64,000 nucleotides of DNA, from positions 186,001-250,000 of the forward strand of contig CM102287.1 of NCBI GenBank assembly GCA_046563655.1, given 5' to 3'. The translations under genes and the position numbers were made by a program. A model generated the notes under the pieces. The model saw only the letters and a list, made by a program, of their open reading frames with translations, was not told where the DNA came from and did no database searches. Shown here piece by piece: positions 1 through 19,885 of the stretch. The DNA is from Yuukianura sp. NJ FZ-2021. Taxonomy: Eukaryota. Every line of letters begins with the position of its first letter. Position 1 is the first letter of the stretch.

Positions 1-330
1 AAGCCTTTCCTCGGGAGATTTAGGAGACGGAGACCTTGGTCGGCTCCAAAAATAAATGGAAGGCGGGAACTTCTCGCGCAGGACAGAATCGAGGTACATG
101 AGCTTGGAGGTCGTGAGGCCTCTGCCAGTTTTATGCCAGGAGGTAGGAATGGCTTCGATAATCGCAGGATTCAAGTTACGCTTGGCATAGTAAACGATTT
201 CAGAGTCTGTAGGCTTTCGCTGGAGAGCAGATTCTATCTTAGGGATCAAACGCTTCAGGAAATCAGTGACGATCTCTCCGTCCCACTGAGGAAAATCAAG
301 TTTAGGTCTGGCTGATCGCTGAGAAGACAT
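1..330 (-). CDS. ORF3 downstream of integrase (110 codons, open at window edge), unknown or Gag-capsid-like protein
   Basis: Manual translation from ATG 330-328: MSSQRSARPKLDFPQWDGEIVTDFLKRLIPKIESALQRKPTDSEIVYYAKRNLNPAIIEAIPTSW...SPSPKSPEERL, with no stop. It is absent from the ORF track because it is truncated by the window. Confidence 0.6.
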   Translation of the reverse strand, partial: MSSQRSARPKLDFPQWDGEIVTDFLKRLIPKIESALQRKPTDSEIVYYAKRNLNPAIIEAIPTSWHKTGRGLTTSKLMYLDSVLREKFPPSIYFWSRPRSPSPKSPEERL

Positions 331-360
331 GCTAAACCAACAAAAGAACAGAACGAAAAA

Positions 361-1560
361 TTAAATGCCTGTTGTACGATTACGTAACTGGTAACTACTC
401 TGTACAGGTACTGGCTTGGTCTTAACGACTTTAGCATAGGTCATAGGCTCAGGTAATGGTTCTGAAGGGCGGGAAAAATACCTTTTCAAATTGACTATGT
501 TATGTCTGCCTGCATTTTCCTCGGAACCAAACAACTTTAGGCCGTAAACTAAGGGCGTGACCTTCTCCGAAATGACATAAGGGCCTTCCCACTTAAATGC
601 AAACTTTTTCATGATTCCCTTAGCCTTGTCTGACTGTATGTGAGTGCGCAGAAGGACTAAATCACCTACTTCAAAGCTGTCTGACCTACGTTTTTGATTG
701 TAGTACTTGGCCTGAGAGGCTTGAGACTTTTCTAAATGTTCTCTGGCTAATCGATAGACTTTAGAAAGACGCTCTATCAGGGTCAATTGGTAGTCTGTCC
801 ACTCGGAAAATGCGTCGCTCTGAGAATCTTCTAAGGCCAAATCAAAGGGAGTGGAAAGCTCACGACCGAAATTTAACATAGAGGGACTAAAACCTGTCGA
901 ATCGCTAATCGCAGTACGCAAAGCCATGGCAACTTCTGGAAGATTCTCATCCCATTTTGAATGTTTACGTGCTACGTAGGCTCTAAGAATGGCTATGACG
1001 TTCCGATTGACACGCTCGGTAATGTTCGCCTGAGGATGATAGGTCGAAATGAATTTTAGCTTAACCTGCCAAGTTTTGCAAAGTTTCTTAAACAACTCAG
1101 AAGTGAATTGAGAACCATTGTCACTAAGTAACGCTCTAGGCCTACCGAAACGACAAAATACTTCCTGCTCGAGCTTTTTTGAACAATCTGAAAGGAGTCG
1201 TAGCTTCTCTAAGAGGAAAAATCTCAACCCATTTCGTAAAATGATCTGTCACGACTAGCAAAAACGTATTTTGACGTTGAGTTTTCGTAAGGGGGCCTAT
1301 CAAATCAAGGGCTAACATATCCCATGGACCTCTAGTCTGAACACTTTGGAGCTCACCTACTGGTTTCGTAGTGGGATTTTTAGTCTTTTGGCAAATGTCA
1401 CAGGACGTAACGAATTTGTAAATGTCCTCGTGCATACCAAACCAGAAAACTCGACGAAGTAAGCGATAAAGGGTCTTTCTGGAAGCCCATGTGACCTGAC
1501 TCTGGACGATCATGAAAATAACTCAGAACTTGGGAACGTAAAGAAGTAAGGAATGAAAGG
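361..1560 (-). CDS. Integrase, broken by frameshifts (~1548, ~1481, ~1175-1193)
   Basis: Removing extra homopolymer bases gives FHDRPESGHMGFRKT...CDIC (HHCC), then LALDLIGP, SDNGSQF, ERVNR (DDE) and WEGPY (GPY/F). Stop codon at 363-361. Confidence 0.88.
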
Positions 1561-3684
1561 AAGTTTTCCTGCGTACTTTCCTAATCGATAAAGGATTCCG
1601 TCGTGCACTACGAAATCTTTACCCATGTCAGTTAAAAGCGCTTGGACCTCTAAATCTTTACTTTGTTCCTCTTTGAGCTGATCTAAAGAAATTTCCCTTG
1701 TGAGTGAAAGAAAAATGGCGGGAGAAGAACTATTTAGTGGAAAATGTAAATTTTCGCGATGAACTTCTGCATCCTCACTTTCTCCTACTGGGGCTCTAGA
1801 CAAGGCGTCTGCTACAACGTTAAGTTTCCCTGGACAATGAGTAATAATGGGCTGAAAATCCTGAATTCTAAGGGCCCAACGGGTAAACTTACTGTTGACA
1901 TCTTTCATTTTGTCTAACCAAACTAGAGCTTTGTTGTCTGTCTCGAGGCGAAATCTCTGACCGTCAATGTAATGTTCGAATTTCTTAAGGGCAAACAAAA
2001 TACCTACACACTCAATTTCACTGGAACCGTAGTTCTTTTCTGCGTTATTTAGGGAACGACTGGCAAAAGCTATTGGTCTCTCAAAACCATTGATTTCCTG
2101 GGCAAGGACTGCAGAAACACCAACCTTGGACGCGTCCGTCCGGATGATGAACTCTTTAGAAAAATCGGGAAAAGCCAAAACTAAATTATCGGAACAAATC
2201 GCTGCTCTGAGCTTTAAAAATGCGGACTCCTGAGCATCTGACCAATCAAAGGGAACATCCTTATGTAACAATCTGTTAAGGGGCTCACTAACCTCCGAAA
2301 ACTTGTCGACAAACTGCCGATACCAGGAGCAAAGTCCTAAAAACTGACGAACTTGTTTAGGCGTCGTTGGCCTGGGGAACTCAGAAACTGCCGAAACTTT
2401 CTCCGGATCACGCTCAATTCCGTTAGGAGAAATGATGTAACCTAAGTACTTTAATGTAGTTTTGCCAAACTCACATTTATCCTTATTTACAGTAAGACCT
2501 GCAGATTGTAAACGTTCGAAAACGTACTTTAAGTGCTCTAAATGCTCTGTCCAAGAGTTGGAGTATACAATGATATCGTCAATGTATCCATCAGCAAAGC
2601 GACCTCTCGCTGTGCCCAGAACTTTATTTACAAGCCTTTGAAAAAGAGAAGGGGCTGACTTTAAACCAAAGGGCATTCGAGTGAATTGAAATTTCCCTTC
2701 ATGACAAATAAAAGCAGTATATTTGGCACTATTTTCATCTAAAGCTACTTGCCAATAGCCTTTCTTTAAATCAATGACAGAAAGAAACTTAGCTTGTCCT
2801 AAGTTGTGGAAAAGATAATCTAACCTAGGAATTGGGAATGGATCATGAGGAAGCCGCGCGTTAACTTTTCTCAAGTCCAGGGTAAATCTCCAAGATTCAC
2901 CTTTGTCTTTGGTGTGCATATATACAGGGGAAGCCCATTCAGATTCGGAGGGAACAATGACTCCTAACTTTAGCATTTCAGAAATGTTGTCAGCAATCAA
3001 TTGTCTTTTAAAGGGACTAACGGGATAGGGCTTGGAAGCAATTGGGGGTCCAGGAGACGGTGTCAACTCACACTTAACCCAATCAGTCAGGCCTAACTGA
3101 GAAGAGAAAAGTGAAGGAAAACTATCGGTAAGGGTCTTTAATTCCTGAGACTGTACGTCACTGAGGCCAAGAAGTGCGCACAAGTACTCGCGATTGTGAA
3201 AGTCGTATTCCAATCTACCTTTAGTTTTTGTCCCGTTAATGGAAAAAGTACCGTCATGAAAATCTGGAACCAAATGATAGTTCCGAATGAAGTCAAGTCC
3301 GAGAATTAATGGAAAAGGGGGAGACTGGAGTACGTGTACTCGTTGGACATAATCGTCTGTGTGAATTTTGAATTTTAAATCAGCTGAACCTAAAGTACTG
3401 ATCGTACTAGAGTCACCAATCGTTAACGTTACTTTACAATCCTTAGAAAAAATCAATCCCAACTTATTTGCTAAGGAAAGAGAAATGTGGGAATACGTAG
3501 AGAGAGAATCTAGGTGGGCTGAATGCACCGAATTCCGAATTCGTACCATTATGGTGGGAGCTGCTTTAGAAAAATTTAATTGTGGAAGGATAGGGGGCTC
3601 CCGTCCTACCTTCCTTGGGGGTTTGGATCCCTGGGAACTTGATGGGGCAGGGTGTAAACTACAACGTCTATTCCCCTCATGCAT
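1510..3684 (-). CDS. pol: Pol: aspartic protease, reverse transcriptase, RNase H
   Basis: PR: LDSLS and LILGLDF. RT: DLRKVN, IDLKKGYWQ, MPFGLKSAP, YIDD (2586-2575), YLG. RNase H: TDAS, EIE, TDN, ADALSR. The true start is likely by fusion or frameshift from upstream. Confidence 0.93.
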   Translation of the reverse strand: MHEGNRRCSLHPAPSSSQGSKPPRKVGREPPILPQLNFSKAAPTIMVRIRNSVHSAHLDSLSTYSHISLSLANKLGLIFSKDCKVTLTIGDSSTISTLGSADLKFKIHTDDYVQRVHVLQSPPFPLILGLDFIRNYHLVPDFHDGTFSINGTKTKGRLEYDFHNREYLCALLGLSDVQSQELKTLTDSFPSLFSSQLGLTDWVKCELTPSPGPPIASKPYPVSPFKRQLIADNISEMLKLGVIVPSESEWASPVYMHTKDKGESWRFTLDLRKVNARLPHDPFPIPRLDYLFHNLGQAKFLSVIDLKKGYWQVALDENSAKYTAFICHEGKFQFTRMPFGLKSAPSLFQRLVNKVLGTARGRFADGYIDDIIVYSNSWTEHLEHLKYVFERLQSAGLTVNKDKCEFGKTTLKYLGYIISPNGIERDPEKVSAVSEFPRPTTPKQVRQFLGLCSWYRQFVDKFSEVSEPLNRLLHKDVPFDWSDAQESAFLKLRAAICSDNLVLAFPDFSKEFIIRTDASKVGVSAVLAQEINGFERPIAFASRSLNNAEKNYGSSEIECVGILFALKKFEHYIDGQRFRLETDNKALVWLDKMKDVNSKFTRWALRIQDFQPIITHCPGKLNVVADALSRAPVGESEDAEVHRENLHFPLNSSSPAIFLSLTREISLDQLKEEQSKDLEVQALLTDMGKDFVVHDGILYRLGKYAGKLPFIPYFFTFPSSELFS

Positions 3685-4097
3685 AATTCAGACCAAATAA
3701 TGTGGGAAATAATGTTCCATCGTCCTCTGGAAAGACCTACTCCAATTCTGGGCATGTGGACAACTGAATTTGTGTCTAAGGCTCGTTTGGCTACAGTTTG
3801 TAAAGCTACACGAAGAGCATCGTAGTCAATTGGGACTGGCTCGTTGGGATGTCCTTGGGCTATCATGTTGGCAACTTCTATGTCTTTGGCTACTTGGACA
3901 AACTGTACATGACCTCTCTGAATTGGGGCTCGTAATTTTCTGTACTCCATTTCTGGAGCACGAAATGCCTTGGAAAGCGAAGTGACAAAACCTTTTCCCC
4001 AAAAACCCTGATCGTTACAAATGTGTGCCAAGATACAACGTTGATTCTTTAAAATGGGCTGAGTTGCATCGCCAGTAACATGATGAATTTGACCTTT
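3645..4097 (-). CDS. Macrodomain, SCO6735/TARG1(Poa1p)/DarG-like ADP-ribosylhydrolase class, within ORF 3606-4553
   Basis: Motifs IHHVTGDAT, ILAHICNDQGFWGKGFV, GHVQFVQV, VANMIAQ, IDYDAL, VHMPRIGVGLSRGRW and VVVY occur in canonical macrodomain order. Confidence 0.88.
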
Positions 4098-4182
4098 CTG
4101 GGGAGGATTAGGAGTACTGGAAGTTAAAGGAACGAAAACTGGAGAATCAAACAATGACGGAAGAGCGACCTTCTCCTGCGAG

Positions 4183-5433
4183 TCACTCCTCCTTAAACTT
4201 TTGGGTAACCGCCCTGATTTGTTTTCCTCGCTTTTTGGGACATTGTGGAGCGTAGTGACCCTTCTGGTTACAGTAGAAGCACGTGACCTGATCGATTGAC
4301 CATTCTCTAGAGGGTGGAGGTTGACCTGAACTACCCTGTCTACTCTCATTTCCTGGGGGTGGACGACCTTTACCATAATTGCTAGGCTGAACTGAACCTG
4401 ATGCAGCTGGAGGACGCTGTGCATTGGAACTAGAAGATCCTGAATCGTTAGAAGCCCTAGGCTGATACCGTGCAGAAGTTCTCTCTTTAAGTCTTTGATT
4501 GTACTCAGAAAAATCATCGGAAGTTTTCGCTCGAAGGAGGGGCTTATTCTCAAATCGCCTAGTCCTATTCAAGTCTCCTATAATCTCTTTACCATGTGAA
4601 ATGAGCTCTGCTATCCCTGTAGCCTGCGAAGATCTAAGCAAAAGAGAGATTTCTGGGATACACGAATTAATGATTCTGTCCCTAATCGTTTCTGTGGAAA
4701 CCTGAGGATCGATTCTCCTGTAGGAATTTGAAATGTCCCACGCAAAAGTTTCAAAAGATTCAGCAAAAAATTGTTTTCGAGAAAATAATTCAGCAAGAAG
4801 TTTGTCTTTTGACTGACCGACTCCCTCATAATTTTGAAAAACGACTTTAAAATCTTCCCAGGTTGTGATACTGTCCTTCGTATCCAACCACCATCGAAAA
4901 GTGTCAGAATCTTTGTGGAACATTCGGCTAATTAATACCAATTTCCCTTCTTCAGTTAAATTTTTCAGAGCAAAATAATCTTCAGCGTCTTTAAAGAAAG
5001 CTTGAATTGGCATACGCTGCGAATATTTGGGAATAGGAATCACTGCTGCTTGTTCCACTAATAAAACTTGGGGCGCGTTAGGTGGTGTGATAGCTAGTGC
5101 GGGTGCGGTACTGGGTTGGGGTGCGGCAACCACTGGCGCGGCGGTTAATTGTTGTGCTTGCATAGCCGCTAATTGTGCTTGTAAAGTTTGTAATTGTTGA
5201 CGAAGGTCAGCAATTACAACGTCTTTATTATCCGGGGGGTCCATAATTGCGAGTGAATCTGAAAATTCCTCCTCTGAATCTGATTTGTTTTCGTTAATTA
5301 CTGGGGAAATCAAAAGAACAGACGGGGGTGCGCTTTTCGCCCGCTCCGGTTCAGCAGGGACAAGTAGTCCTGTGTGGGAAGCCTCTGCTTGAGACTTTTG
5401 TAATTCCCGACTCGCACTGCGGGTGATTACCAT
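4183..5433 (-). CDS. gag: Gag polyprotein (coiled-coil, capsid-like region, CCHC zinc knuckle)
   Basis: 416-aa ORF. CFYCNQKGHYAPQC (CX2CX4HX4C) at 4281-4240. Capsid-like WW...TWEDFK...F and QxxxESFETF segments. Confidence 0.9.
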   Translation of the reverse strand: MVITRSASRELQKSQAEASHTGLLVPAEPERAKSAPPSVLLISPVINENKSDSEEEFSDSLAIMDPPDNKDVVIADLRQQLQTLQAQLAAMQAQQLTAAPVVAAPQPSTAPALAITPPNAPQVLLVEQAAVIPIPKYSQRMPIQAFFKDAEDYFALKNLTEEGKLVLISRMFHKDSDTFRWWLDTKDSITTWEDFKVVFQNYEGVGQSKDKLLAELFSRKQFFAESFETFAWDISNSYRRIDPQVSTETIRDRIINSCIPEISLLLRSSQATGIAELISHGKEIIGDLNRTRRFENKPLLRAKTSDDFSEYNQRLKERTSARYQPRASNDSGSSSSNAQRPPAASGSVQPSNYGKGRPPPGNESRQGSSGQPPPSREWSIDQVTCFYCNQKGHYAPQCPKKRGKQIRAVTQKFKEE

Positions 5434-5829
5434 GAAAGAAAACTAAAAAAAACAACAAAAACTGAAATTTAGAAATTAATTTTGAATGATTTACTGAAAT
5501 TTACGCGGCATAATTGGAAAAAGTTTTGAATTTAAACTTTGAAAAGAATTTGCACTGCAAAAAGCCGAATTGTTAATTTGGGGTGCGGGACCGCGCTCGA
5601 CTTGAAAAATGTTAAGCAGAGCGGTGCACTCAGCACTGCTGTGCAAAACCGTACCGTATTGCTGTTATGCCTATAGGAAGGGGAAAACCATGCCGTTATC
5701 CGTACCAATGACCGAAATGTACCGTTTTCTACGGTAAACAATGATGAATCGGTGCTTAATCACTGATTAAGCATCGATTAATGATTAAAACATGAAATGG
5801 GAGAGCGGGGGAGGCAGTTCGAACACTGC

Positions 5830-5840
5830 TTTCGGCACCA
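5830..5840 (-). promoter_or_regulatory. Primer binding site TGGTGCCGAAA, complementary to the 3' end of tRNA-Phe
   Basis: Starts with TGG 2-4 nt downstream of the LTR end. 11 nt match the animal tRNA-Phe 3' end (...UUUCGGCACCA). Confidence 0.8.
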
Positions 5841-5940
5841 GATATGAGGGCTACGGGTAAGGATGCCTTGGACCTTGCCCGTGCTCTCAAATAAACAAAA
5901 GAAAAACCGAAAACCGAAACGACGATGTGTGGGCTACGAA

Positions 5941-5946
5941 TTTATT
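5941..5946 (-). promoter_or_regulatory. Candidate LTR polyadenylation signal AATAAA
   Basis: tttatt on the plus strand, about 100 nt before the LTR 3' end, inside an 8-9 bp hairpin. Confidence 0.55.
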
Positions 5947-6058
5947 CGTAGCTCATGACCTCTACACTAAACAATGGCCCTCTAGGGCAAAGAAAACAAT
6001 GGGCCTGAAGGGCCTAGAACCGAACCAATGAGGGAAGGGAGGGAAGGAAGCGGGTAAC

Positions 6059-6144
6059 AGGCCAATACCTGGCCTATGACCACTAACTGGTCAGTGACCA
6101 CTAACTGGTCATGACCACTAACTGGTCAGGGCCACTAACTGGCC
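6059..6144. repeat. Five tandem palindromic units (TGACCA-ctaac-TGGTCA type) in the LTR
   Basis: AGGCCAataccTGGCCT, three copies of TGACCActaacTGGTCA, and GGCCActaacTGGCC are read directly from the sequence. Confidence 0.85.
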
Positions 6145-6499
6145 TCAAGAGGACGTAGAGCGTCCATTTGACCTTACGGTGACCCTTTGGCTGGCGGAAG
6201 AAGACGAAGAGGACAGGCACGGCGTGGCAGGAGGATCTGCTGCTGCTGCTGCTGCTGACTGCATGAGAGCTGGAGTCCGAGTGAGTGCTCGTGCAGCTCG
6301 TGCTTCTGCTTCTGCTCTTCTTCTTTTTTGAATTCGGGGAAGCGGGAAGCGGGGAAACACTTATGGGCATTGCCCTAACTTTTATTTTTAATTGTTTTTA
6401 TCTATTTTATATTTTTAACTTAGCTTATACTTTTAATTAGTTGTTAATTGAGGATCATATCCTCACATACAAATTTCAAAATTTGTATGTGAGGACAAA

Positions 6500-9400
6500 A
6501 AGTTTGGCAAATTTCAAAACTTCGTTTCTGAGAAACCGCTCACATGTAGCAAACAATGGTTTTTTTTGGAAATCAACAGGTTTGCCTGGTTACAAATTAG
6601 AGCATTAGTAGAATAACTTGTTGTCTATAAAGGCTTATAATCTGGACACAATGGTTTGCCCGGTTACAAATTAGAGCATTAGTAGAATAACTTGTTGTCT
6701 ATAAAGGCTTATAATCTGGACACAATGCTAATTACCTCTGTACAAGCTCATTTTTTAAAGCAGCAGTTTGTCAAATTTCAAAACTTCGTTTCTGAGAAAC
6801 CGCTCACATGTAGCAAACAATGTTTTTTTTTGGAAATCAACAGGTTTGCCCGGTTACAAATTAGAGCATTAGTAGAATAACTTGTTGTCTATAAAGGCTT
6901 ATAATCTGGACACAATGCTAATTACCTCTGTACAAGCTCATTTTTTAAAGCAGCAGTTTGGCAAATTTCAAAACTTCGTTTCTGAGAAACCGCTCACATG
7001 TAGCAAACAATGGTTTTTTTTTGGAAATCAACAGGTTTGCCCGGTTACAAATTAGAGCATTAGTAGAATAACTTGTTGTCTATAAAGGCTTATAATCTGG
7101 ACACAATGCTAATTACCTCTGTACAAGCTCATTTTTTAAAGCAGCAGTTTGGCAAATTTCAAAACTTCGTTTCTGAGAAACCGCTCACATGTAGCAAACA
7201 ATGGTTTTTTTGGGGAATCGACAGGTTTGCTCGGTTACAAATTAGAGCATTAGTAGAATAACTTGTTGTCTATAAAGGCTTATAATCTGGACACAATGCT
7301 AATTACCTCTGTACACGCTCATTTTTTAAAGCAGCAGTTTGGTAAATTTTCAAAACTTCGTTTCTGAGAAACCGCTCACATGTATGCAAACAGTGGGGTT
7401 TTTTGGAAATCAACAGGTTAGCATGGTTACAAATTAGAGCATTAGTAGAATAACTTGTTGTCTATAAAGGCTTATAATCTGGACACAATGCTAATTACCT
7501 CTGTACAAGCTCATTTTTTAAAGCAGCAGTTTGGCAAATTTCAAAACTTCGTTTCTGAGAAACCGCTCACATGTAGCAAACAATGGTTTTTTTTGGAAAT
7601 CAACAGGTTTGCCCGGTTACAAATTAGAGCATTAGTAGAATAACTTGTTGTCTATAAAGGCTTATAATCTGGACACAATGCTAATTACCTCTGTACAAGC
7701 TCATTTTTTAAAGCAGCAGTTTGGCAAATTTCAAAACTTCGTTTCTGAGAAACCGCTCACATGTAGCAAACAATGGTTTTTTTTGGAAATCAACAGGTTT
7801 GCCCGGTTACAAATTAGAGCATTAGTAGAATAACTTGTTGTCTATAAAGGCTTATAATCTGGACACAATGCTAATTACCTCTGTACAAGCTCATTTTTTA
7901 AAGCAGCAGTTTGGCAAATTTCAAAACTTCGTTTCTGAGAAACCGCTCACATGTAGCAAACAATGGTTTTTTTTGGGAATCAACAGGTTTGCTCGGTTAC
8001 AAATTAGAGCATTAGTAGAATAACTTGTTGTCTATAAAGGCTTATAATCTGGACACAATGCTAATTACCTCTGTACACGCTCATTTTTTAAAGCAGCAGT
8101 TTGGTAAATTTCAAAACTTCGTTTCTGAGAAACCGCTCACATGTATGCAAACAATGGGGTTTTTTGGAAATCAACAGGTTTGCCCGGTTACAAATTAGAG
8201 CATTAGTAGAATAACTTGTTGTCTATAAAGGCTTATAATCTGGACACAATGCTAATTACCTCTGTACACGCTCATTTTTTAAAGCAGCAGTTTGGTAAAT
8301 TTCAAAACTTCGTTTCTGAGAAACCGCTCACATGTATGCAAACAATGGGGTTTTTTGGAAATCAACAGGTTAGCATGGTTACAAATTAGAGCATTAGTAG
8401 AATAACTTGTTGTCTATAAAGGCTTATAATCTGGACACAATGCTAATTACCTCTGTACAAGCTCATTTTTTAAAGCAGCAGTTTGGTAAATTTCAAAACT
8501 TCGTTTCTGAGAAACCGCTCACATGTAGCAAACAATGGTTTTTTGGAAATCAACAGGTTTGCCCGGTTACAAATTAGAGCATTAGTAGAATAACTTGTTG
8601 TCTATAAAGGCTTATAATCTGGACACAATGCTAATTACCTCTGTACAAGCTCATTTTTTAAAGCAGCAGTTTGTCAAATTTCAAAACTTCGTTTCTGAGA
8701 AACCGCTCACATGTAGCAAACAATGTTTTTTTTTTGGAAATCAACAGGTTTGCTCGGTTACAAATTAGAGCATTAGTAGAATAACTTGTTGTCTATAAAG
8801 GCTTATAATCTGGACACAATGCTAATTACCTCTGTACACGCTCATTTTTTAAAGCAGCAGTTTGGTAAATTTCAAAACTTCGTTTCTGAGAAACCGCTCA
8901 CATGTATGCAAACAATGGGGTTTTTTTGGAAATCAACAGGTTAGCATGGTTACAAATTAGAGCATTAGTAGAATAACTTGTTGTCTATAAAGGCTTATAA
9001 TCTGGACACAATGCTAATTACCTCTGTACAAGCTCATTTTTTAAAGCAGCAGTTTGGTAATTTTCAAAACTTCGTTTCTGAGAAACCGCTCACATGTATG
9101 CAAACAATGGGGTTTTTTGGAAATCAACAGGTTTGCCCGGTTACAAATTAGAGCATTAGTAGAATAACTTGTTGTCTATAAAGGCTTATAATCTGGACAC
9201 AATGCTAATTACCTCTGTACAAGCTCATTTTTTAAAGCAGCAGTTTGGCAAATTTCAAAACTTCGTTTCTGAGAAACCGCTCACATGTAGCAAACAATGG
9301 TTTTTTTTTGGGAATCAACAGGTTTGCTCGGTTACAAATTAGAGCATTAGTAGAATAACTTGTTGTCTATAAAGGCTTATAATCTGGACACAATGCTAAT

Positions 9401-12400
9401 TACCTCTGTACACGCTCATTTTTTAAAGCAGCAGTTTGGTAAATTTCAAAACTTCGTTTCTGAGAAACCGCTCACATGTATGCAAACAATGGGGTTTTTT
9501 GGAAATCAACAGGGTTGCATGGTTACAAATTAGAGCAGTAGTAGAATAACTTGTTGTCTATAAAGGCTTATAATCTGGACACAATGCTAATTACCTCTGT
9601 ACACGCTCATTTTTTAAAGCAGCAGTTTGGTAAATTTCAAAACTTCGTTTCTGAGAAACCGCTCACATGTATGCAAACAATGGTTTTTTTGGGGAATCAA
9701 CAGGTTTGCATGGTTACAAATTAGAGCATTAGTAGAATAACTTGTTGTCTATAAAGGCTTATAATCTGGACACAATGCTAATTACCTCTGTACAAGCTCA
9801 TTTTTTAAAGCAGCAGTTTGGCAAATTTCAAAACTTCGTTTCTGAGAAACCGCTCACATGTAGCAAACAATGGTTTTTTGGAAATCAACAGGTTTGCCCG
9901 GTTACAAATTAGAGCATTAGTAGAATAACTTGTTGTCTATAAAGGCTTATAATCTGGACACAATGCTAATTACCTCTGTACAAGCTCATTTTTTAAAGCA
10001 GCAGTTTGTCAAATTTCAAAACTTCGTTTCTGAGAAACCGCTCACATGTAGCAAACAATGGTTTTTTTTTTTGGAAATCAACAGGTTTGCCCGGTTACAA
10101 ATTAGAGCATTAGTAGAATAACTTGTTGTCTATAAAGGCTTATAATCTGGACACAATGCTAATTACCTCTGTACTAGCTCATTTTTTAAAGCAGCAGTTT
10201 GGTCAAATTTCAAAACTTCGTTTCTGAGAAACCGCTCACATGTAGCAAACAATGGCTTTTTTTGGAATCAACAGGTTTGCTCGGTTACAAATTAGAGCAT
10301 TAGTAGAATAACTTGTTGTCTATAAAGGCTTATAATCTGGACACAATGCTAATTACCTCTGTACACGCTCATTTTTTAAAGCAGCAGTTTGGTAAATTTC
10401 AAAACTTCGTTTCTGAGAAACCGCTCACATGTATGCAAACAATGGGGTTTTTTGGAAATCAACAGGTTAGCATGGTTACAAATTAGAGCATTAGTAGAAT
10501 AACTTGTTGTCTATAAAGGCTTATAATCTGGACACAATGCTAATTACCTCTGTACACGCTCATTTTTTAAAGCAGCAGTTTGGTAAATTTCAAAACTTCG
10601 TTTCTGAGAAACCGCTCACATGTATGCAAACAATGGGGTTTTTTGGAAATCAACAGGTTTGCCCGGTTACAAATTAGAGCATTAGTAGAATAACTTGTTG
10701 TCTATAAAGGCTTATAATCTGGACACAATGCTAATTACCTCTGTACAAGCTCATTTTTTAAAGCAGCAGTTTGGCAAATTTCAAAACTTCGTTTCTGAGA
10801 AACCGCTCACATGTAGCAAACAATGGTTTTTTTTGGAAATCAACAGGTTTGCCCGGTTACAAATTAGAGCATTAGTAGAATAACTTGTTGTCTATAAAGG
10901 CTTATAATCTGGACACAATGCTAATTACCTCTGTACACGCTCATTTTTTAAAGCAGCAGTTTGGTAAATTTCAAAACTTCGTTTCTGAGAAACCGCTCAC
11001 ATGTATGCAAACAATGGGGTTTTTTGGAAATCAACAGGTTTGCCCGGTTACAAATTAGAGCATTAGTAGAATAACTTGTTGTCTATAAAGGCTTATAATC
11101 TGGACACAATGCTAATTACCTCTGTACACGCTCATTTTTTAAAGCAGCGGTTTGGTAAATTTCAAAACTTCGTTTCTGAGAAACCGCTCACATGTATGCA
11201 AACAATGGGGTTTTTTGGAAATCAACAGGTTAGCATGGTTACAAATTAGAGCAGTAGTAGAATAACTTGTTGTCTATAAAGGCTTATAATCTGGACACAA
11301 TGCTAATTACCTCTGTACACGCTCATTTTTTAAAGCAGCAGTTTGGTAAATTTCAAAACTTCGTTTCTGAGAAACCGCTCACATGTATGCAAACAATGGG
11401 GTTTTTTGGAAATCAACAGGGTTGCCCGGTTACAAATTAGAGCAGTAGTAGAATAACTTGTTGTCTATAAAGGCTTATAATCTGGACACAATGATAATTA
11501 CCTCTGTACAAGCTCATTTTTTAAAGCTGCAGTTTGGCAAAGGCTACCGTAGTTCGCTTATGGAACAAACGGGACCCGTACGATTCGGCTGAAAATTTAA
11601 CCAGGTGCTCTCCACACCAATAGGAACAACTTTTGTACAGGGTCCAGATGGGGCGTCAAACGGTTTGACCTCCAGGGGTCACCAAAGGTCAAGGGGTCAT
11701 CCTATGACAACCCCCATTAAGTAAGGTATCGTTGGAAAGCCCTATAACCTCCTGATTCAGAAAATGCTATGGGTATTAATACTTTGGTCCAGCTCATTTT
11801 GTAAGAGGTCACCGAAGGTCAACTATGAAAAAAGTTGCAAAGTACCAACAAATGAAAATCGTTCCATGACAACCGGCAAATTGACCTATACAAAAGTTGT
11901 TCCACTCGAAGAGATAAGCAACTTTTTTCCCTGGGATTTTTCTCTACCGTGAACAGCTGATAAGATACCGGCCAAGGCAAGAACTACTAAAAGTAGATTT
12001 CAGCTAGGACATTCGCAACAGTAAAAGGAAATTGGACAACAACGATGGTTGTACAGCTCTATATTCCCCCAGTACATGGAAAGGGTTCAAGAAATTAACT
12101 TCTTAAAACAATATGCTGACGTTTAAATCAAAACTGTAGGAAAGAATCAGATTCCGTTTCACCGTGGCGAATGTCCTACCTGAAATCTACTTTTAGCAGT
12201 TCTTGCCTTGGCCGGTATCTTATCAGCTGTTCACGGTAGAGAAAAATCCCAGGGGAAAAAGTTGCTTATCTCGTCGAGTGGAACAACTTTTGTATAGGTC
12301 AGTTTGCCGGTTGTCATGGAACGATTTTCATTTGTTGGTACTTTGCAACTTTTTTCATAGTTGACCTTCGGTGACCTCTTACGGCTAAACGGCTGGACCA

Positions 12401-15400
12401 AAGTATTAATACCCATACATTTTCTGAATCAGGAGGTGAAGGGCTTTCCAACGATACCTTACTTAATGGGGGTTGTCATAGGATGACCCCTTGACCTTTG
12501 GTGACCCCTGGAGGTCAAACCGTTTGACGCCCCATCTGGACCCTGTACAAAAGTTGTTCCTATTGGTGTGGAGAGCACCTGGTTAAATTTTCAGCCGAAT
12601 CGTACGGGTCCCGTTTGTTCCATAAGCGAACTACGGTAGCCTTTCAAAACTTCGTTTCTGAGAAACCGCTCACATGTATGCAAACAATGGGGTTTTTTGG
12701 AAATCAACAGGTTAGCATGGTTACAAATTAGAGCAGTAGTAGAATAACTTGTTGTCTATAAAGGCTTATAATCTGGACACAATGCTAATTACCTCTGTAC
12801 ACGCTCATTTTTTAAAGCAGCAGTTTGTCAAATTTAAAACTTCGTTTCTGAGAAACCGCTCACATGTAGCAAACAATAGGTTTTTTTTTGAACTCAACAG
12901 GTTTGCCCGGTTACAAATTAGAGCATTAGTAGAATAACTTGTTGTCTATAAAGGCTTATAATCTGGACACAATGCTAATTACCTCTGTACAAGCTCATTT
13001 TTTAAAGCAGCAGTTTGGCAAATTTCAAAACTTCGTTTCTGAGAAACCGCTCACATGTAGCAAACAATGGTTTTTTTTGGGAATCAACAGGTTTGCTCGG
13101 TTACAAATTAGAGCATTAGTAGAATAACTTGTTGTCTATAAAGGCTTATAATCTGGACACAATGCTAATTACCTCTGTACACGCTCATTTTTTAAAGCAG
13201 CAGTTTGGTAAATTTCAAAACTTCGTTTCTGAGAAACCGCTCACATGTATGCAAACAATGGGGTTTTTTGGAAATCAACAGGTTAGCATGGTTACAAATT
13301 AGAGCAGTAGTAGAATAACTTGTTGTCTATAAAGGCTTATAATCTGGACACAATGCTAATTACCTCTGTACAAGCTCATTTTTTAAAGCAGCAGTTTGGT
13401 AAATTTCAAAACTTCGTTTCTGAGAAACCGCTCACATGTATGCAAACAATGGTTTTTGGAAATCAACAGGTTTGCCGGTTACAAATTAGAGCAGTAGTAG
13501 AATAACTTGTTGTCTATAAAGGCTTATAATCTGGACACAATGCTAATTACCTCTGTACAAGCTCATTTTTTAAAGCAGCAGTTTGTCAAATTTCAAAACT
13601 TCGTTTCTGAGAAACCGCTCACATGTAGCAAACAATGTTTTTTTTTGGAAATCAACAGGTTTGCCCGGTTACAAATTAGAGCATTAGTAGAATAACTTGT
13701 TGTCTATAAAGGCTTATAATCTGGACACAATGCTAATTACCTCTGTACACGCTCATTTTTTAAAGCAGCAGTTTGGTAAATTTCAAAACTTCGTTTCTGA
13801 GAAACCGCTCACATGTATGCAAACAATGGGGTTTTTTGGAAATCAACAGGTTTGCCCGGTTACAAATTAGAGCATTAGTAGAATAACTTGTTGTCTATAA
13901 AGGCTTATAATCTGGACACAATGCTAATTACCTCTGTACACGCTCATTTTTTAAAGCAGCAGTTTGGTAAATTTCAAAACTTCGTTTCTGAGAAACCGCT
14001 CACATGTATGCAAACAATGGGGTTTTTTGGAAATCAACAGGTTTGCCCGGTTACAAATTAGAGCATTAGTAGAATAACTTGTTGTCTATAAAGGCTTATA
14101 ATCTGGACACAATGCTAATTACCTCTGTACAAGCTCATTTTTTAAAGCAGCAGTTTGGTAATTTTCAAAACTTCGTTTCTGAGAAACCGCTCACATGTAG
14201 CAAACAATGGTTTTTTTTTTTGGAAATCAACAGGTTAGCATGGTTACAAATTAGAGCAGTAGTAGAATAACTTGTTGTCTATAAAGGCTTATAATCTGGA
14301 CACAATGCTAATTACCTCTGTACACGCTCATTTTTTAAAGCAGCAGTTTGGTAAATTTCAAAACTTCGTTTCTGAGAAACCGCTCACATGTATGCAAACA
14401 ATGGGGTTTTTTGGAAATCAACAGGGTTACCCGGTTACAAATTAGAGCAGTTAGTAGAATAACTTGTTGTCTATAAAGGCTTATAATCTGGACACAATGC
14501 TAATTACCTCTGTACACGCTCATTTTTTAAAGCAGCAGTTTGGCAAATTTTCAAAACTTCGTTTCTGAGAAACCGCTCACATGTAGCAAACAATGGTTTT
14601 GGAAATCAACAGGTTTGCCCGGTTACAAATTAGAGCATTAGTAGAATAACTTGTTGTCTATAAAGGCTTATAATCTGGACACAATGCTAATTACCTCTGT
14701 ACACGCTCATTTTTTAAAGCAGCAGTTTGGTAAATTTTCAAAACTTCGTTTCTGAGAAACCGCTCACATGTATGCAAACAATGGGGTTTTTGGAAATCAA
14801 CAGGTTTGCCCGGTTACAAATTAGAGCATTAGTAGAATAACTTGTTGTCTATAAAGGCTTATAATCTGGACACAATGCTAATTACCTCTGTACACGCTCA
14901 TTTTTTAAAGCAGCAGTTTGGTAAATTTCAAAACTTCGTTTCTGAGAAACCGCTCACATGTATGCAAACAATGGGTTTTTTGGAAATCAACAGGTTTGAC
15001 TGGTTACAAATTAGAGCATTAGTAGAATAACTTGTTGTCTATAAAGGCTTATAATCTGGACACAATGCTAATTACCTCTGTACAAGCTCATTTTTTAAAG
15101 CAGCAGTTTGGTAAATTTCAAAACTTCGTTTCTGAGAAACCGCTCACATGTATGCAAACAATGGTTTTTTTTTGGAAATCAACATGTTTGCCCGGTTACA
15201 AATTAGAGCATTAGTAGAATAACTTGTTGTCTATAAAGGCTTATAATCTGGACACAATGCTAATTACCTCTGTACAAGCTCATTTTTTAAAGCAGCAGTT
15301 TGGTAATTTTCAAAACTTCGTTTCTGAGAAACCGCTCACATGTATGCAAACAATGGGGTTTTTTGGAAATCAACAGGTTAGCATGGTTACAAATTAGAGC

Positions 15401-18400
15401 ATTAGTAGAATAACTTGTTGTCTATAAAGGCTTATAATCTGGACACAATGCTAATTACCTCTGTACAAGCTCATTTTTTAAAGCAGCAGTTTGGTAAATT
15501 TCAAAACTTCGTTTCTGAGAAACCGCTCACATGTATGCAAACAATGGGTTTTTTTTTGGAAATCAACAGGTTAGCATGGTTACAAATTAGAGCAGTAGTA
15601 GAATAACTTGTTGTCTATAAAGGCTTATAATCTGGACACAATGCTAATTACCTCTGTACACGCTCATTTTTTAAATCAGCAGTTTGGTAATTTCAAAACT
15701 TCGTTTCTGAGAAACCGCTCACATGTATGCAAACAATGGGGTTTTTTGGAAATCAACAGGTTAGCATGGTTACAAATTAGAGCAGTAGTAGACTAACTTG
15801 TTGTCTATAAAGGCTTATAATCTGGACACAATGCTAATTACCTCTGTACAAGCTCATTTTTTAAAGCAGCAGTTTGGTAATTTTCAAAACTTCGTTTCTG
15901 AGAAACCGCTCACATGTATGCAAACAATGGGGTTTTTTTGGAAATCAACAGGGTTACCCGGTTACAAATTAGAGCAGTATTAGAATAACTTGTTGTCTAT
16001 AAAGGCTTATAATCTGGACACAATGCTAATTACCTCTGTACAAGCTCATTTTTTAAAGCTGCAGTTTGGCAAATTTAAAACTTCGTTTCTGAGAAACCGC
16101 TCACTTGTAGCAAACAATGGTTTTTTTTTGGAAATCAACAGGTTTGCCCGGTTACAAATTAGAGCATTAGTAGAATAACTTGTTGTCTATAAAGGCTTAT
16201 AATCTGGACACAATGCTAATTACCTCTGTACACGCTCATTTTTTGAGGCACCAGTTTTATAAATTTCAAAACTTTGTTTCTGAGAAACCGCTCACATGTT
16301 GACAAACAATAGGTTTTTTTTTTAAATCAACAGGTTTGCCCGGTTACAAATTAGAGCATTAGTAGAATAACTTGTTGTCTATAAAGGCTTATAATCTGGA
16401 CACAATGCTAATTACCTCTGTACAAGCTCATTTTTTAAAGCAGCAGTTTGGCAAATTTCAAAACTTCGTTTCTGAGAAACCGCTCACATGTAGCAAACAA
16501 TGGTTTTTTTGGGAATCAACAGGTTTGCTCGGTTACAAATTAGAGCATTAGTAGAATAACTTGTTGTCTATAAAGGCTTATAATCTGGACACAATGCTAA
16601 TTACCTCTGTACAAGCTCATGTTTTAAAGCAGCAGTTTGGTAATTTTCAAAACTTCGTTTCTGAGAAACCGCTCACATGTATGCAAACAATGGGGTTTTT
16701 TGGAAATCAACAGGTTTACTGGTTACAAATTAGAGCATTAGTAGAATAACTTGTTGTCTATAAAGGCTTATAATCTGGACACAATGCTAATTACCTCTGT
16801 ACACGCTCATTTTTTAAAGCAGCAGTTTGGTAAATTTTCAAAACTTCGTTTCTGAGAAACCGCTCACATGTATGCAAACAGTGGGGTTTTTTGGAAATCA
16901 ACAGGTTAGCATGGTTACAAATTAGAGCATTAGTAGAATAACTTGTTGTCTATAAAGGCTTATAATCTGGACACAATGCTAATTACCTCTGTACAAGCTC
17001 ATTTTTTAAAGCAGCAGTTTGGTAAATTTCAAAACTTCGTTTCTGAGAAACCGCTCACATGTATGCAAACAATGGGGTTTTTTGGAAATCAACAGGTTAG
17101 CATGGTTACAAATTAGAGCAGTAGTAGAATAACTTGTTGTCTATAAAGGCTTATAATCTGGACACAATGCTAATTACCTCTGTACACGCTCATTTTTTAA
17201 AGCAGCAGTTTGCTAAATTTCAAAACTTCGTTTCTGAGAAACCGCTCACATGTAGCAAACAATGGTTTTTTTTTTTTGGAAATCAACAGGTTTGCCCGGT
17301 TACAAATTAGAGCATTAGTAGAATAACTTGTTGTCTATAAAGGCTTATAATCTGGACACAATGCTAATTACCTCTGTACACGCTCATTTTTTAAAGCAGC
17401 AGTTTGGTAAATTTCAAAACTTCGTTTCTGAGAAACCGCTCACATGTATGCAAACAATGGGGTTTTTTGGAAATCAACAGGTTAGCATGGTTACAAATTA
17501 GAGCATTAGTAGAATAACTTGTTGTCTATAAAGGCTTATAATCTGGACACAATGCTAATTACCTCTGTACACGCTCATTTTTTAAAGCAGCAGTTTGGCA
17601 AATTTCAAAACTTCGTTTCTGAGAAACCGCTCACATGTATGCAAACAATGGTTTTTTTGGAAATCAACAGGTTTGCCCGGTTACAAATTAGAGCATTAGT
17701 AGAATAACTTGTTGTCTATAAAGGCTTATAATCTGGACACAATGCTAATTACCTCTGTACACGCTCATTTTTTAAAGCAGCAGTTTGGTAAATTTCAAAA
17801 CTTCGTTTCTGAGAAACCGCTCACATGTAGCAAACAATGGTTTTTTTTTTGGAAATCAACAGGTTTGCCCGGTTACAAATTAGAGCATTAGTAGAATAAC
17901 TTGTTGTCTATAAAGGCTTATAATCTGGACACAATGCTAATTACCTCTGTACACGCTCATTTTTTAAAGCAGCAGTTTGAAAAATCTTAAAACTTGGTTT
18001 CTGAGAAACCGCTCACGTTTTTTGGAAATCAACAGGTTTGCCCGGTTACAAATTAGAGCATTAGTAGAATAACTTGTTGTCTATAAAGGCTTATAATCTG
18101 GACACAATGCTAATTACCTCTGTACAAGCTCATTTTTTAAAGCAGCAGTTTGGCAAATTTCAAAACTTCGTTTCTGAGAAACCGCTCACATGTAGCAAAC
18201 AATGGTTTTTTTTTTAGAAATCAACAGGTTTGCTCGGTTACAAATTAGAGCATTAGTAGAATAACTTGTTGTCTATAAAGGCTTATAATCTGGACACAAT
18301 GCTAATTACCTCTGTACACGCTCATTTTTTAAAGCAGCAGTTTGGTAAATTTCAAAACTTCGTTTCTGAGAAACCGCTCACATGTATGCAAACAATGGGT

Positions 18401-19785
18401 TTTTTTTGGAAATCAACAGGTCAGCATGGTTACAAATTAGAGCAGTATTAGAATAACTTGTTGTCTATAAAGGCTTATAATCTGGACACAATGCTAATTA
18501 CCTCTGTACACGCTCATTTTTTAAAGCAGCAGTTTGGTAAATTTTCAAAACTTCGTTTCTGAGAAACCGCTCACATGTATGCAAACAATGGGGTTTTTTG
18601 GAAATCAACAGGTTAGCCCGGTTACAAATTAGAGCAGTAGTAGAATAACTTGTTGTCTATAAAGGCTTATAATCTGGACACAATGCTAATTACCTCTGTA
18701 CAAGCTCATTTTTTAAAGCAGCAGTTTGGCAAATTTCAAAACTTCGTTTCTGAGAAACCGCTCACATGTAGCAAACAATGGTTTTTTGAAATCAACAGGT
18801 TAGCATCGGTTACAAATTAGAGCATTAGTAGAATAACTTGTTGTCTATAAAGGCTTATAATCTGGACACAATGCTAATTACCTCTGTACACGCTCATTTT
18901 TTAAAGCAGCAGTTTGGTAAATTTTCAAAACTTCGTTTCTGAGAAACCGCTCACATGTATGCAAACAATGGGTTTTTTTTTGGAAATCAACAGGTTAGCA
19001 TGGTTACAAATTAGAGCAGTAGTAGAATAACTTGTTGTCTATAAAGGCTTATAATCTGGACACAATGCTAATTACCTCTGTACAAGCTCATTTTTTAAAG
19101 CAGCAGTTTGGCAAATTTCAAAACTTCGTTTCTGAGAAACCGCTCACATGTAGCAAACAATGGGGTTTTTTGGAAATCAACAGGTTAGCATGGTTACAAA
19201 TTAGAGCATTAGTAGAATAACTTGTTGTCTATAAAGGCTTATAATCTGGACACAATGCTAATTACCTCTGTACACGCTCATTTTTTAAAGCAGCAGTTTG
19301 GTAAATTTCAAAACTTCGTTTCTGAGAAACCGCTCACATGTATGCAAACAATGGGGTTTTTTTTTGGAAATCAACAGGTTTGCCCGGTTACAAATTAGAG
19401 CATTAGTAGAATAACTTGTTGTCTATAAAGGCTTATAATCTGGACACAATGCTAATTACCTCTGTACAAGCTCATTTTTTAAAGCAGCAGTTTGGCAAAT
19501 TTCAAAACTTCGTTTCTGAGAAACCGCTCACATGTAGCAAACAATGGTTTTTTTTGGGAATCAACAGGTTTGCTCGGTTACAAATTAGAGCATTAGTAGA
19601 ATAACTTGTTGTCTATAAAGGCTTATAATCTTGACACAATGCTAATTACCTCTGTACACGCTCATTTTTTAAAGCAGCAGTTTGGTAATTTTCAAAACTT
19701 CGTTTCTGAGAAACCGCTCACATGTATGCAAACAATGGGGTTTTTTGGAAATCAACAGGTTAGCATGGTTACAAATTAGAGCAGT
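6500..19785 (+). repeat. Satellite A, ~190-bp monomer, roughly 60-65 copies
   Basis: The head-to-tail unit ttgttgtctataaaggcttataatctggacac...gcattagtagaataac recurs every 187-194 bp. Confidence 0.98.
11542..12641. mobile_element. Non-autonomous fold-back DNA transposon (MITE), Spy-like, 1100 bp with ~480-490-bp TIRs
   Basis: GGCTACCGTAG...CTACGGTAGCC termini. Arms ~11542-12030 and ~12153-12641 are near-perfect inverted copies. The flanks ggcaaa|tttcaaaac rebuild the intact satellite site with no duplication. Confidence 0.85.
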
Positions 19786-19885
19786 NNNNNNNNNNNNNNN
19801 NNNNNNNNNNNNNNNNNNNNNNNNNNNNNNNNNNNNNNNNNNNNNNNNNNNNNNNNNNNNNNNNNNNNNNNNNNNNNNNNNNNNN
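19786..19885. other. Assembly gap (100 N, probably an unknown-size scaffold gap)
   Basis: Exactly 100 Ns separate two unrelated satellites. Confidence 0.98.

Follow-up and report, generated by a model that had tools for sequence, protein, structure and literature searches.

The macrodomain SCO6735 of Streptomyces coelicolor acts on thymidine in single-stranded DNA (ssDNA) as well as on PARP1-modified protein, stripping ADP-ribose from both, and gives protection from DarT (PMC9411070), and SCO6735, TARG1 and DarG all reverse the ADP-ribosylation that PARP10 places on uracil in single-stranded RNA (ssRNA) (PMC13036486). DarG and TARG1 share both nucleic acid substrates of SCO6735, ADP-ribosylated thymidine in DNA and ADP-ribosylated uracil in RNA (PMC9411070, PMC13036486). 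SCO6735 and its relative BT1257 of Bacteroides thetaiotaomicron are free bacterial genes. In contrast, the domain described here is encoded within a eukaryotic long terminal repeat (LTR) retrotransposon, a Ty3/Gypsy element on the minus strand of a 64,000-nt stretch of Yuukianura sp. NJ FZ-2021 (contig CM102287.1, positions 186,001 to 250,000; hereafter the window, to whose positions all coordinates refer), where it lies between Gag and protease.

The nearest precedent is a single sentence on vertebrate retroviruses that carry a macrodomain in an additional open reading frame (ORF) (PMC4977317, citing Basta 2009). There, as here, an animal reverse-transcribing element holds a macrodomain as an accessory gene. 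The present case differs in being a Gypsy element, which carries the domain between gag and pol, while some of its relatives have it after pol. In Nematostella, a SCO6735 homologue is fused to a beta-lactamase-type domain (PMC9411070). Our literature search returned no description of a macrodomain in a Gypsy or Metaviridae element, with Repbase, Dfam and supplementary files outside its scope, so that a catalogue entry may exist; a survey of zebrafish endogenous retroviruses does not mention a macrodomain. While accessory enzymes in LTR retroelements and viral macrodomains are both already known, an SCO6735-type eraser of ADP-ribose on nucleic acids in Gypsy elements, occurring in three architectures, appears to be new.

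Identity and active site of the macrodomain

In 165 codons the macrodomain frame shows no stop but its terminal one, whereas the two alternative frames contain 3 and 12. A phmmer search against all chains of the Protein Data Bank (PDB) matched its translation to 5e3b (SCO6735, expectation value E 4.8e-30), 2afc (9.7e-30) and 2fg1 (BT1257, 2e-29), with ALC1/CHD1L at E 1.5e-07 and TARG1 at E 0.017; the match to macrodomains is far above chance. The AlphaFold2 model, built from an alignment of 30 rows (A2), reached a predicted local distance difference test value of 93.6 and a predicted template modelling (TM) score of 0.88. Foldseek returned 238 PDB matches at E<=0.001; among those listed almost all were macrodomains, with a few designed serine-hydrolase variants as exceptions, in the order 2fg1 (TM 0.87/0.91, root-mean-square deviation 1.3), 2afc, 5e3b (TM 0.79/0.87), ALC1, TARG1 and DarG. 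Model and fold matches agree with the macrodomain fold, which has three layers (alpha/beta/alpha), a mixed sheet at its centre and a cleft for ADP-ribose. The domain thus shows the close similarity to solved members that marks the SCO6735/BT1257 subfamily, sharing fold and 41-43% structurally aligned identity with SCO6735 (5E3B) and BT1257 (2AFC/2FG1) at TM values up to 0.91.

The preliminary description, made from the sequence, had placed the domain in the SCO6735/TARG1/DarG clade. Both phmmer and Foldseek bear this out, assigning it to the SCO6735/BT1257 type of the ALC1-like class, which includes TARG1 and DarG. The motifs on which that description relied (GDAT, AHICNDQGFWGKGFV, VQFVQV, ANMIAQ and MPRIGVGLSRGRW) all stand in the minus-strand translation of 3606-4568, and its limits of 3645-4097 agree with those of the PDB alignment (Table 1). 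DarG and TARG1 (OARD1) match in fold (5m3e and 4j5q, TM 0.73-0.85), while their likeness in sequence is weak, as seen from the TARG1 value given above and from the PADLOC DarG model (E 2.6e-04, profile positions 9-147 of 329). The window domain differs from DarG in having Gln for Lys80, no C-terminal DarT-binding domain and no adjacent darT, its neighbours being gag and pol, and it differs from TARG1 in placing Gln at the Lys84 position of the Lys84/Asp125 dyad. SCO6735 itself is without both residues of the TARG1 dyad (PMC9411070).

Profile searches gave a mixed outcome for the expected macrodomain match: the PDB sequence and fold matches are clear, whereas Pfam Macro (PF01661) did not detect the window macrodomain even at E<=10. 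NCBIfam likewise gave no match to the macrodomain part. Two bacterial relatives (P0189 and P0194) score 23.6-24.1 bits on Pfam Macro at a cut-off of 22, and the profile is insensitive to the retroelement macrodomain clade defined below. The blindness of Pfam and NCBIfam to it is a probable reason for elements of this kind being absent from catalogues. PHROG 335, annotated as 'phosphatase', matches the macrodomain at E 5.6e-21.

The active site was compared in native SCO6735 numbering, to which the 5e3b chain numbering adds 20; this offset reproduces the mutant names H24, N27, K34, Q85 and G128 (PMC9411070). By alignment, the window domain retains His24, Asn27, Lys34, Gln85 (the Q of ANMIAQ), Gly126 and Gly128 and has Ile for Val25, with the motifs H-I-C-N, ANMIAQ and IGVG at the catalytic positions; Val or Ile at position 25 is typical of the subfamily (PMC9411070). 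The suggestion that the Gln of NMIxQ occupies the catalytic position of the clade holds, since it aligns with Gln85 of SCO6735, the position of Lys84 in TARG1 and Lys80 in DarG (PMC9411070). As in SCO6735 and BT1257, it is Gln and not Lys that occupies the catalytic position. SCO6735 loses its activity with Q85A, and with N27S or G128E it keeps almost none or a strongly lowered level (PMC9411070). As judged from the alignment, all residues whose mutation disables SCO6735 are retained in the window domain, and across the 30 rows of A2 Asn27, Gln85 and Gly126 are kept in every row and Gly128 in 29, the exception being P0042 with Asp. The window-type macrodomain is probably an active ADP-ribosylhydrolase.

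Unlike SCO6735 and BT1257, the window domain has a loop after the catalytic Gln that is 3 residues shorter, no Lys89 and an Arg for Gly in the second phosphate loop, in addition to falling below Pfam Macro detection. The loop comprises 7 residues in 9/9 rows of the retroelement clade and in none of the 21 other rows of A2, of which the 18 outside both retroelement groups have 10-13 and the three of the L003 group (see below) 8, 13 and 11. Arg replaces Gly in 8/9 clade rows and 0/21 others. The Lys89 position of SCO6735 falls in an alignment gap, and the extended mobile loop is shortened here; Lys89 matters for SCO6735 on DNA and not on protein substrates (PMC9411070).

These changes could alter catalysis and would fit a rival reading, in which the domain reads ADP-ribose or poly(ADP-ribose) (PAR) without removing it. 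Tethered to Gag or Pol, it would then steer the pre-integration complex to PARylated chromatin or DNA breaks, in the manner of chromoviral chromodomains or of the macrodomain of ALC1. Gypsy elements are known to carry targeting domains among their accessories, and ALC1 is matched at the E value given above and comes 4th in Foldseek. ALC1 also shares the Gln at the catalytic position and has a macrodomain that binds PAR (PMC9411070). Against this, the similarity to the hydrolases SCO6735 and BT1257 lies more than 20 orders of magnitude above that to ALC1, Asn27, Gln85 and Gly128, each needed by SCO6735 (PMC9411070), are kept across the clade, and a shared targeting role is hard to see for the free third ORF of two relatives (L003 and L002), which is tethered neither to integrase nor to Gag. 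We regard such a reader function as unlikely.

Sibling copies, relatives and origin

Sibling copies were sought in the contigs of four public sequencing runs (X1-X4; two organisms, two studies) aligned to the element at >=85% identity, which yielded 551 contigs for X1, 719 for X2, 299 for X3 and 172 for X4. Contigs from all four runs, and thus from both organisms, cover the macrodomain part at ~98-100% identity, as had been asked of sibling copies; examples are record 6 of X1 (3745-4055, 1 difference), a contig of X3 (3800-4260, 3 differences and 1 gap) and record 30 of X4 (3820-4210, 5 differences and 3 gaps). These sibling contigs, together with the relatives described next, led us to reject a host-gene exon or an assembly chimera as an explanation.

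An exhaustive protein search gave 3538 macrodomain homologues at E<=0.001, the best of which were P0036 (64% identical), P0038 (56%), P0039, P0040, P0041 and P0042. P0038, a distant relative from a metagenome, is a single ORF of 568 amino acids that joins Gag with its CCHC knuckle to a macrodomain. Compared with the window sequences, the Gag of P0038 shows 41% identity (E 3e-65) and its macrodomain 56%, so that the macrodomain is the better conserved of the two. A search among longer proteins, in which 32 of 180 candidates passed, found no polyprotein among them, which is weak evidence. A scan of metagenome contigs based on Gag gave 7 loci (L-numbered), among which the contig of P0038 did not appear. 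In all five loci that span the junction, pol follows directly after gag without a macrodomain between them. L003 carries a third ORF after pol (5020-5496) with the same type of macrodomain, 47% identical, and L002, which shares 76% identity with L003 in pol, holds the start of the same ORF (about 4700-4932) with a frame break before it is cut by the contig end. The presence of the domain in related elements is thus seen in P0038 and in the post-pol ORFs of L003 and L002. These sequences suggest three architectures, namely a frameshift frame between gag and pol, an in-frame fusion to Gag and a free ORF3 after pol. The post-pol macrodomain ORF of L003 and L002 occupies the place that env has in errantiviruses.

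Other fusions of this macrodomain type were also observed: P0037 is a tandem pair, P0063 is joined to DUF4291, P0066 to an ADP-ribosylglycohydrolase domain, P0008 is a 1774-residue protein that its source names an N12 adenine methylase, and P0042 has a weak G-patch-like tail.

From these data we can also weigh whether the domain is a functionless passenger, either a captured bacterial fragment in neutral decay or an assembly chimera. The window copy is indeed broken, both where gag ends and within integrase, and the clade member P0042, with Asp at Gly128, sits on a long branch. On the other hand, the fold of 150 residues and the active site are intact across sequences that are just 45-65% identical, the domain recurs in many sibling contigs of two organisms and in three architectures of related elements, and it is conserved better than Gag. 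We consider a passenger very improbable.

For the origin of the domain, a FastTree phylogeny of 275 domain segments, in which the ten labelled sequences require two changes, was complemented by a quick, unrooted IQ-TREE analysis of 78 of the 275 rows (33 chosen, 45 random). In the latter, nine macrodomains of the gag-side type form a clade (SH-aLRT 88), and the ORF3 of L003 forms a second one with P0057 and P0142 (SH-aLRT 96); both lie inside one cluster of 15 rows whose branching the tree does not resolve. Constraining all 12 retroelement-type macrodomains to a single clade gave a tree whose log-likelihood exceeded that of the free quick search by 26, and the constraint was not rejected (approximately unbiased test, p-AU 0.857). 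A single capture followed by repositioning within the Gypsy lineage is therefore possible on the present tree. Among the best 120 matches of near full length, 6/6 rows with an organism name are bacterial. In viral contigs (IMG/VR), relatives account for 95 of the 105 stretches that matched; the loci kept from them (L008-L087) have gag or pol in 0/80 cases, and their identity to the window domain is 37-46%. The capture from bacteria suggested at the outset agrees with the tree if phages are included, the retroelement macrodomains lying inside a radiation of bacterial and phage sequences. An origin in bacteria or phages is the simplest reading of this unrooted tree and the most likely one. We additionally observed that SCO6735-type macrodomains are common on large contigs of phage or giant-virus type (12-527 kb), where they may counter DarT-type defence.

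Element layout and predicted frameshifting

The features of the element and their coordinates are collected in Table 1. Its assignment to the Gypsy retrotransposons is confirmed by Pfam, which finds the Ty3/Gypsy order of gag with CCHC knuckle (residues 387-403 of the Gag protein P0002), protease, reverse transcriptase, RNase H and integrase; the frame map additionally places the element on the minus strand, which had gone unremarked. Among relatives of the window Gag that carry an organism name, the best is a Gag from the springtail Orchesella dallaii (31%, E 6.8e-42). The element is truncated at the window start, with the 3' LTR lying beyond it, and positions 1-700 share no repeat with 5300-6700. 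The open frame at 1-360 has no Pfam match; contig depth at 300-500 resembles that over the rest of the element in runs X1-X4, which makes this frame part of the repeated family. Siblings differ in length from the window copy at 1547, 1480/1481 and 1191, within or just before the integrase region, and the split integrase frames of the window copy match these differences. The window copy is a decayed, window-truncated member of a high-copy Ty3/Gypsy LTR family.

Table 1. Positions of the annotated features of the Gypsy element in the 64,000-nt window.
Feature	Position	Strand	Basis and remarks
Primer-binding-site-like stretch upstream of gag	5817-5840	-	Reverse complement ends ...GTTCGAA...CCA, like a transfer RNA 3' end; read from sequence
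gag ORF, frame f0	4184-5433	-	ATG at 5433, stop 4184-4186
Gag CCHC zinc knuckle	4234-4284	-	Pfam PF00098 zf-CCHC, E 5.5e-05, 23.5 bits, cut-off 20.8
Frame break, siblings one letter longer	4225-4226	.	Between knuckle and gag stop; contig comparison
Slippery-type heptamer 1, C_CCA_AAA, frame f2	4199-4205	-	One codon before f2 stop
Hairpin 1, 12 bp	4159-4192	-	6 nt past heptamer 1; folding compared with shuffles
Open frame f1 with macrodomain	3606-4568	-	320 codons and stop; macrodomain stop 3606-3608
Macrodomain, SCO6735/BT1257 type, intact	3642-4091	-	PDB alignment, AlphaFold2 model, Foldseek
Slippery-type heptamer 2, A_AAC_CCC, macrodomain frame	3618-3624	-	Three codons before macrodomain stop
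Hairpin 2	3584-3614	-	3 nt past heptamer 2
pol frame f0	1513-3687	-	Holds protease, reverse transcriptase, RNase H
Protease	3247-3543	-	Pfam RVP_2, E 0.001, 19.3 bits, just below cut-off 20.3
Reverse transcriptase	2431-2910	-	Pfam RVT_1, E 4.5e-36
RNase H	1855-2244	-	Pfam RT_RNaseH, E 2e-33
Integrase, two overlapping frames	361-1522	-	Pfam Integrase_H2C2 1.4e-10, rve 3.7e-08, SH3_Tf2-1 7.3e-05
Open frame after integrase, exits window start	1-360	-	ATG just past integrase stop; may be a further ORF of the element

Outside the element, the window consists mostly of satellite DNA (6653-19783 and 19886-64000), so that the element borders on a heterochromatin-like block. Two arrays (6653-11541 and 12642-19783) are built of a 191-bp repeat, and a 161-bp repeat is present in ~275 copies that match at 96% and have a GC skew staying constant near -0.25; a gap of 100 N (19786-19885) separates the two repeats.

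The preliminary description had the macrodomain simply lying between Gag and protease. Its position after the CCHC knuckle and before the protease stands, whereas the domain occupies a frame of its own that needs frameshifting, and its link to gag is broken in the window copy. In stop-to-stop frames and in a three-frame view of the junctions, gag and pol of this copy are both in f0 and the macrodomain is in f1. The step from the macrodomain frame to pol is thus -1, and the overlap of the two (3687-3606) holds heptamer 2 as its single in-frame heptamer. At the gag end, many sibling contigs have one additional letter at 4225, with depths of the longer form relative to the total of 789.7/789.7 in X1, 1044.9/2405.7 in X2, 102.9/102.9 in X3 and 9.2/26.2 in X4. 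Frame arithmetic shows that with this letter the upstream gag frame runs into f2 and therefore places heptamer 1 in the gag frame, which is the case solely in the longer form; the macrodomain frame is then -1 from gag. Conversely, in the one-letter-shorter window copy the first register is lost, and this copy is broken at that site.

Given the longer sibling form, both junctions are -1 steps, each with one in-frame heptamer of the form X_XXY_YYZ located 1-3 codons before the upstream stop. In-frame heptamers occur at a density of only ~0.008 per codon (40 in 5042 nt, three frames), and chance is therefore an unlikely explanation for a heptamer lying no more than three codons before both upstream stops. 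The 70-nt stretch of hairpin 1 folds with -21.6 kcal/mol (z-score -2.44), and 1 of 200 shuffles was equally stable. Pairing of the GGGAGC loop of hairpin 2 with a downstream GCUCCC, judged by eye, could form a pseudoknot. Relatives with a whole gag ORF (L002, L003, L005 and L006) have pol in the -1 frame in 4/4 cases, and A_AAA_AAC in L005 and G_GGA_AAC in L006 stand directly before the gag stop. Most simply, gag, macrodomain and pol of the family can be read as occupying three successive frames, with a -1 step at either junction. A +1 frameshift at the gag stop of the window copy was dropped as a candidate, the stop lying inside a hairpin stem and the relatives all being -1.

Such a layout resembles that of betaretroviruses, in which gag, pro and pol are joined by two -1 frameshifts and the middle frame carries a dUTPase. 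Like this family, mouse mammary tumour virus (MMTV) and Mason-Pfizer monkey virus (MPMV) have three successive -1 frames, heptamers before the upstream stops and an enzyme of nucleic acid care between Gag and polymerase. In contrast to betaretroviruses, the middle frame here comprises the macrodomain alone, the protease being encoded together with pol. Moreover, we are dealing with a Gypsy retrotransposon rather than a retrovirus, frameshifting is predicted, and the first register is lost in the window copy.

Proposed function and implications

We propose a model in which ribosomes on working members of the family would slip by -1 at the heptamer and hairpin at the gag end to produce Gag-Macro, and slippage by another -1 where the macrodomain frame ends would give Gag-Macro-Pol. 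The eraser would thereby be made in a fixed proportion to Gag and be carried into the particle together with reverse transcriptase and integrase, and it could remove host-placed ADP-ribose from the bases (U or T) of the element's single-stranded RNA and complementary DNA (cDNA) or from its proteins. The module would have been taken from bacteria or phages, possibly once, and repositioned later. Its most likely role is that of an ADP-ribose eraser made with or beside Gag and acting against host ADP-ribosylation. This would parallel the macrodomains by which RNA viruses counter antiviral PARPs: those of positive-strand RNA viruses (alphavirus nsP3 and coronavirus Mac1) are also ADP-ribose erasers inside a replicase-side polyprotein, and they match the window domain in fold more weakly (3gqo, 6vuq). 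They differ, however, in belonging to the MacroD-like class, at 15-20% identity, and to viruses that are not reverse-transcribing.

Several observations weigh against this model. At the junctions, the macrodomain frame of the window copy is +1 from gag with heptamer 1 outside the gag frame. We infer that the longer form at 4225 is the working one, and both forms are abundant in both organisms. CCC is an unusual YYY for slippage in the A-site at heptamer 2, and hairpin 2 (-15 kcal/mol, z-score -0.71) folds no better than shuffled sequences and follows after a spacer of only 3 nt, where a programmed -1 frameshift cassette would have 5-9 nt. In the domain itself, the loop of the clade, 3 residues shorter and without Lys89, and the Arg in place of the bacterial Gly mean that substrate or activity may differ from SCO6735. 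Among the relatives, P0038 needs no frameshift and L003 has a separate ORF, so that packaging by fusion to Gag is not universal; P0038 is moreover the only one of the other 8 clade members with a known retroelement context, the rest being short fragments, and the complete-looking L005 and L007 are without a macrodomain. Finally, summed contig depth in runs X1-X4 is lower in macrodomain bins than in pol bins, two weak joints (3614->4330 and 3626->4628, 1 contig each, side 27, below the reliability bar) hint at macrodomain-less relatives, and among the runs containing the stretch none is on record as RNA.

The contig ends of L005 and L007 repeat the first 123 or 63 bases exactly, as expected for collapsed LTRs, and these loci therefore look like complete macrodomain-less relatives of ~6.2-6.3 kb. 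They bear on a further reading, which takes the domain for an active eraser that serves housekeeping or timing, clearing PARP1-made ADP-ribose from cDNA ends, integrase or Gag in the course of integration and repair, or acting on ADP-ribose metabolites, by analogy with the cleaning of the nucleotide pool by retroviral dUTPase. The evidence on identity and active site applies here equally, and the dUTPase of the betaretroviral pro frame occupies a position beside the replication enzymes that parallels that of the macrodomain. SCO6735 also acts on PARP1-modified protein (PMC9411070). The present evidence does not separate such a role from counter-defence, but the macrodomain-less L005 and L007 indicate that the domain is dispensable for the basic cycle, which fits an accessory in an arms race better. 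We give the housekeeping role a low probability.

Taken together, we consider it reasonably probable, from what the sequences tell, that the family carries a macrodomain as a gag-pol accessory which is probably an active ADP-ribosylhydrolase, delivered with Gag against host ADP-ribosylation and of bacterial or phage origin. The narrower proposal, that an animal Gypsy lineage captured a bacterial or phage SCO6735-type eraser of ADP-ribose on T and U bases and delivers it in three ways, keeping its ssRNA genome and cDNA unmodified, is possible but rather doubtful. If true, it would mean that ADP-ribosylation of nucleic acids by PARP10-like, pierisin-like or DarT-like host enzymes is an innate defence of invertebrates against retroelements, and that retroelements evolved a dedicated counter-measure to the ADP-ribosylation of bases.

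Accessory enzymes and genes of retroelements such as dUTPase, chromodomains and env reveal the pressures that act on the element. An eraser is notable here because ADP-ribosylated thymidine in ssDNA and ADP-ribosylated uracil in ssRNA correspond to the two nucleic acid states of the retroelement cycle. Since Pfam Macro misses the domain, it would escape notice when transposable elements are annotated routinely. In one Gypsy lineage the module has apparently moved among three positions, which offers a small natural experiment on the incorporation of accessory genes into polyproteins. The conflict between macrodomains and PARPs, so far one of RNA viruses, would be extended to reverse-transcribing elements, and the domain provides a testable lead that ADP-ribosylation of bases may restrict retrotransposition in animals.

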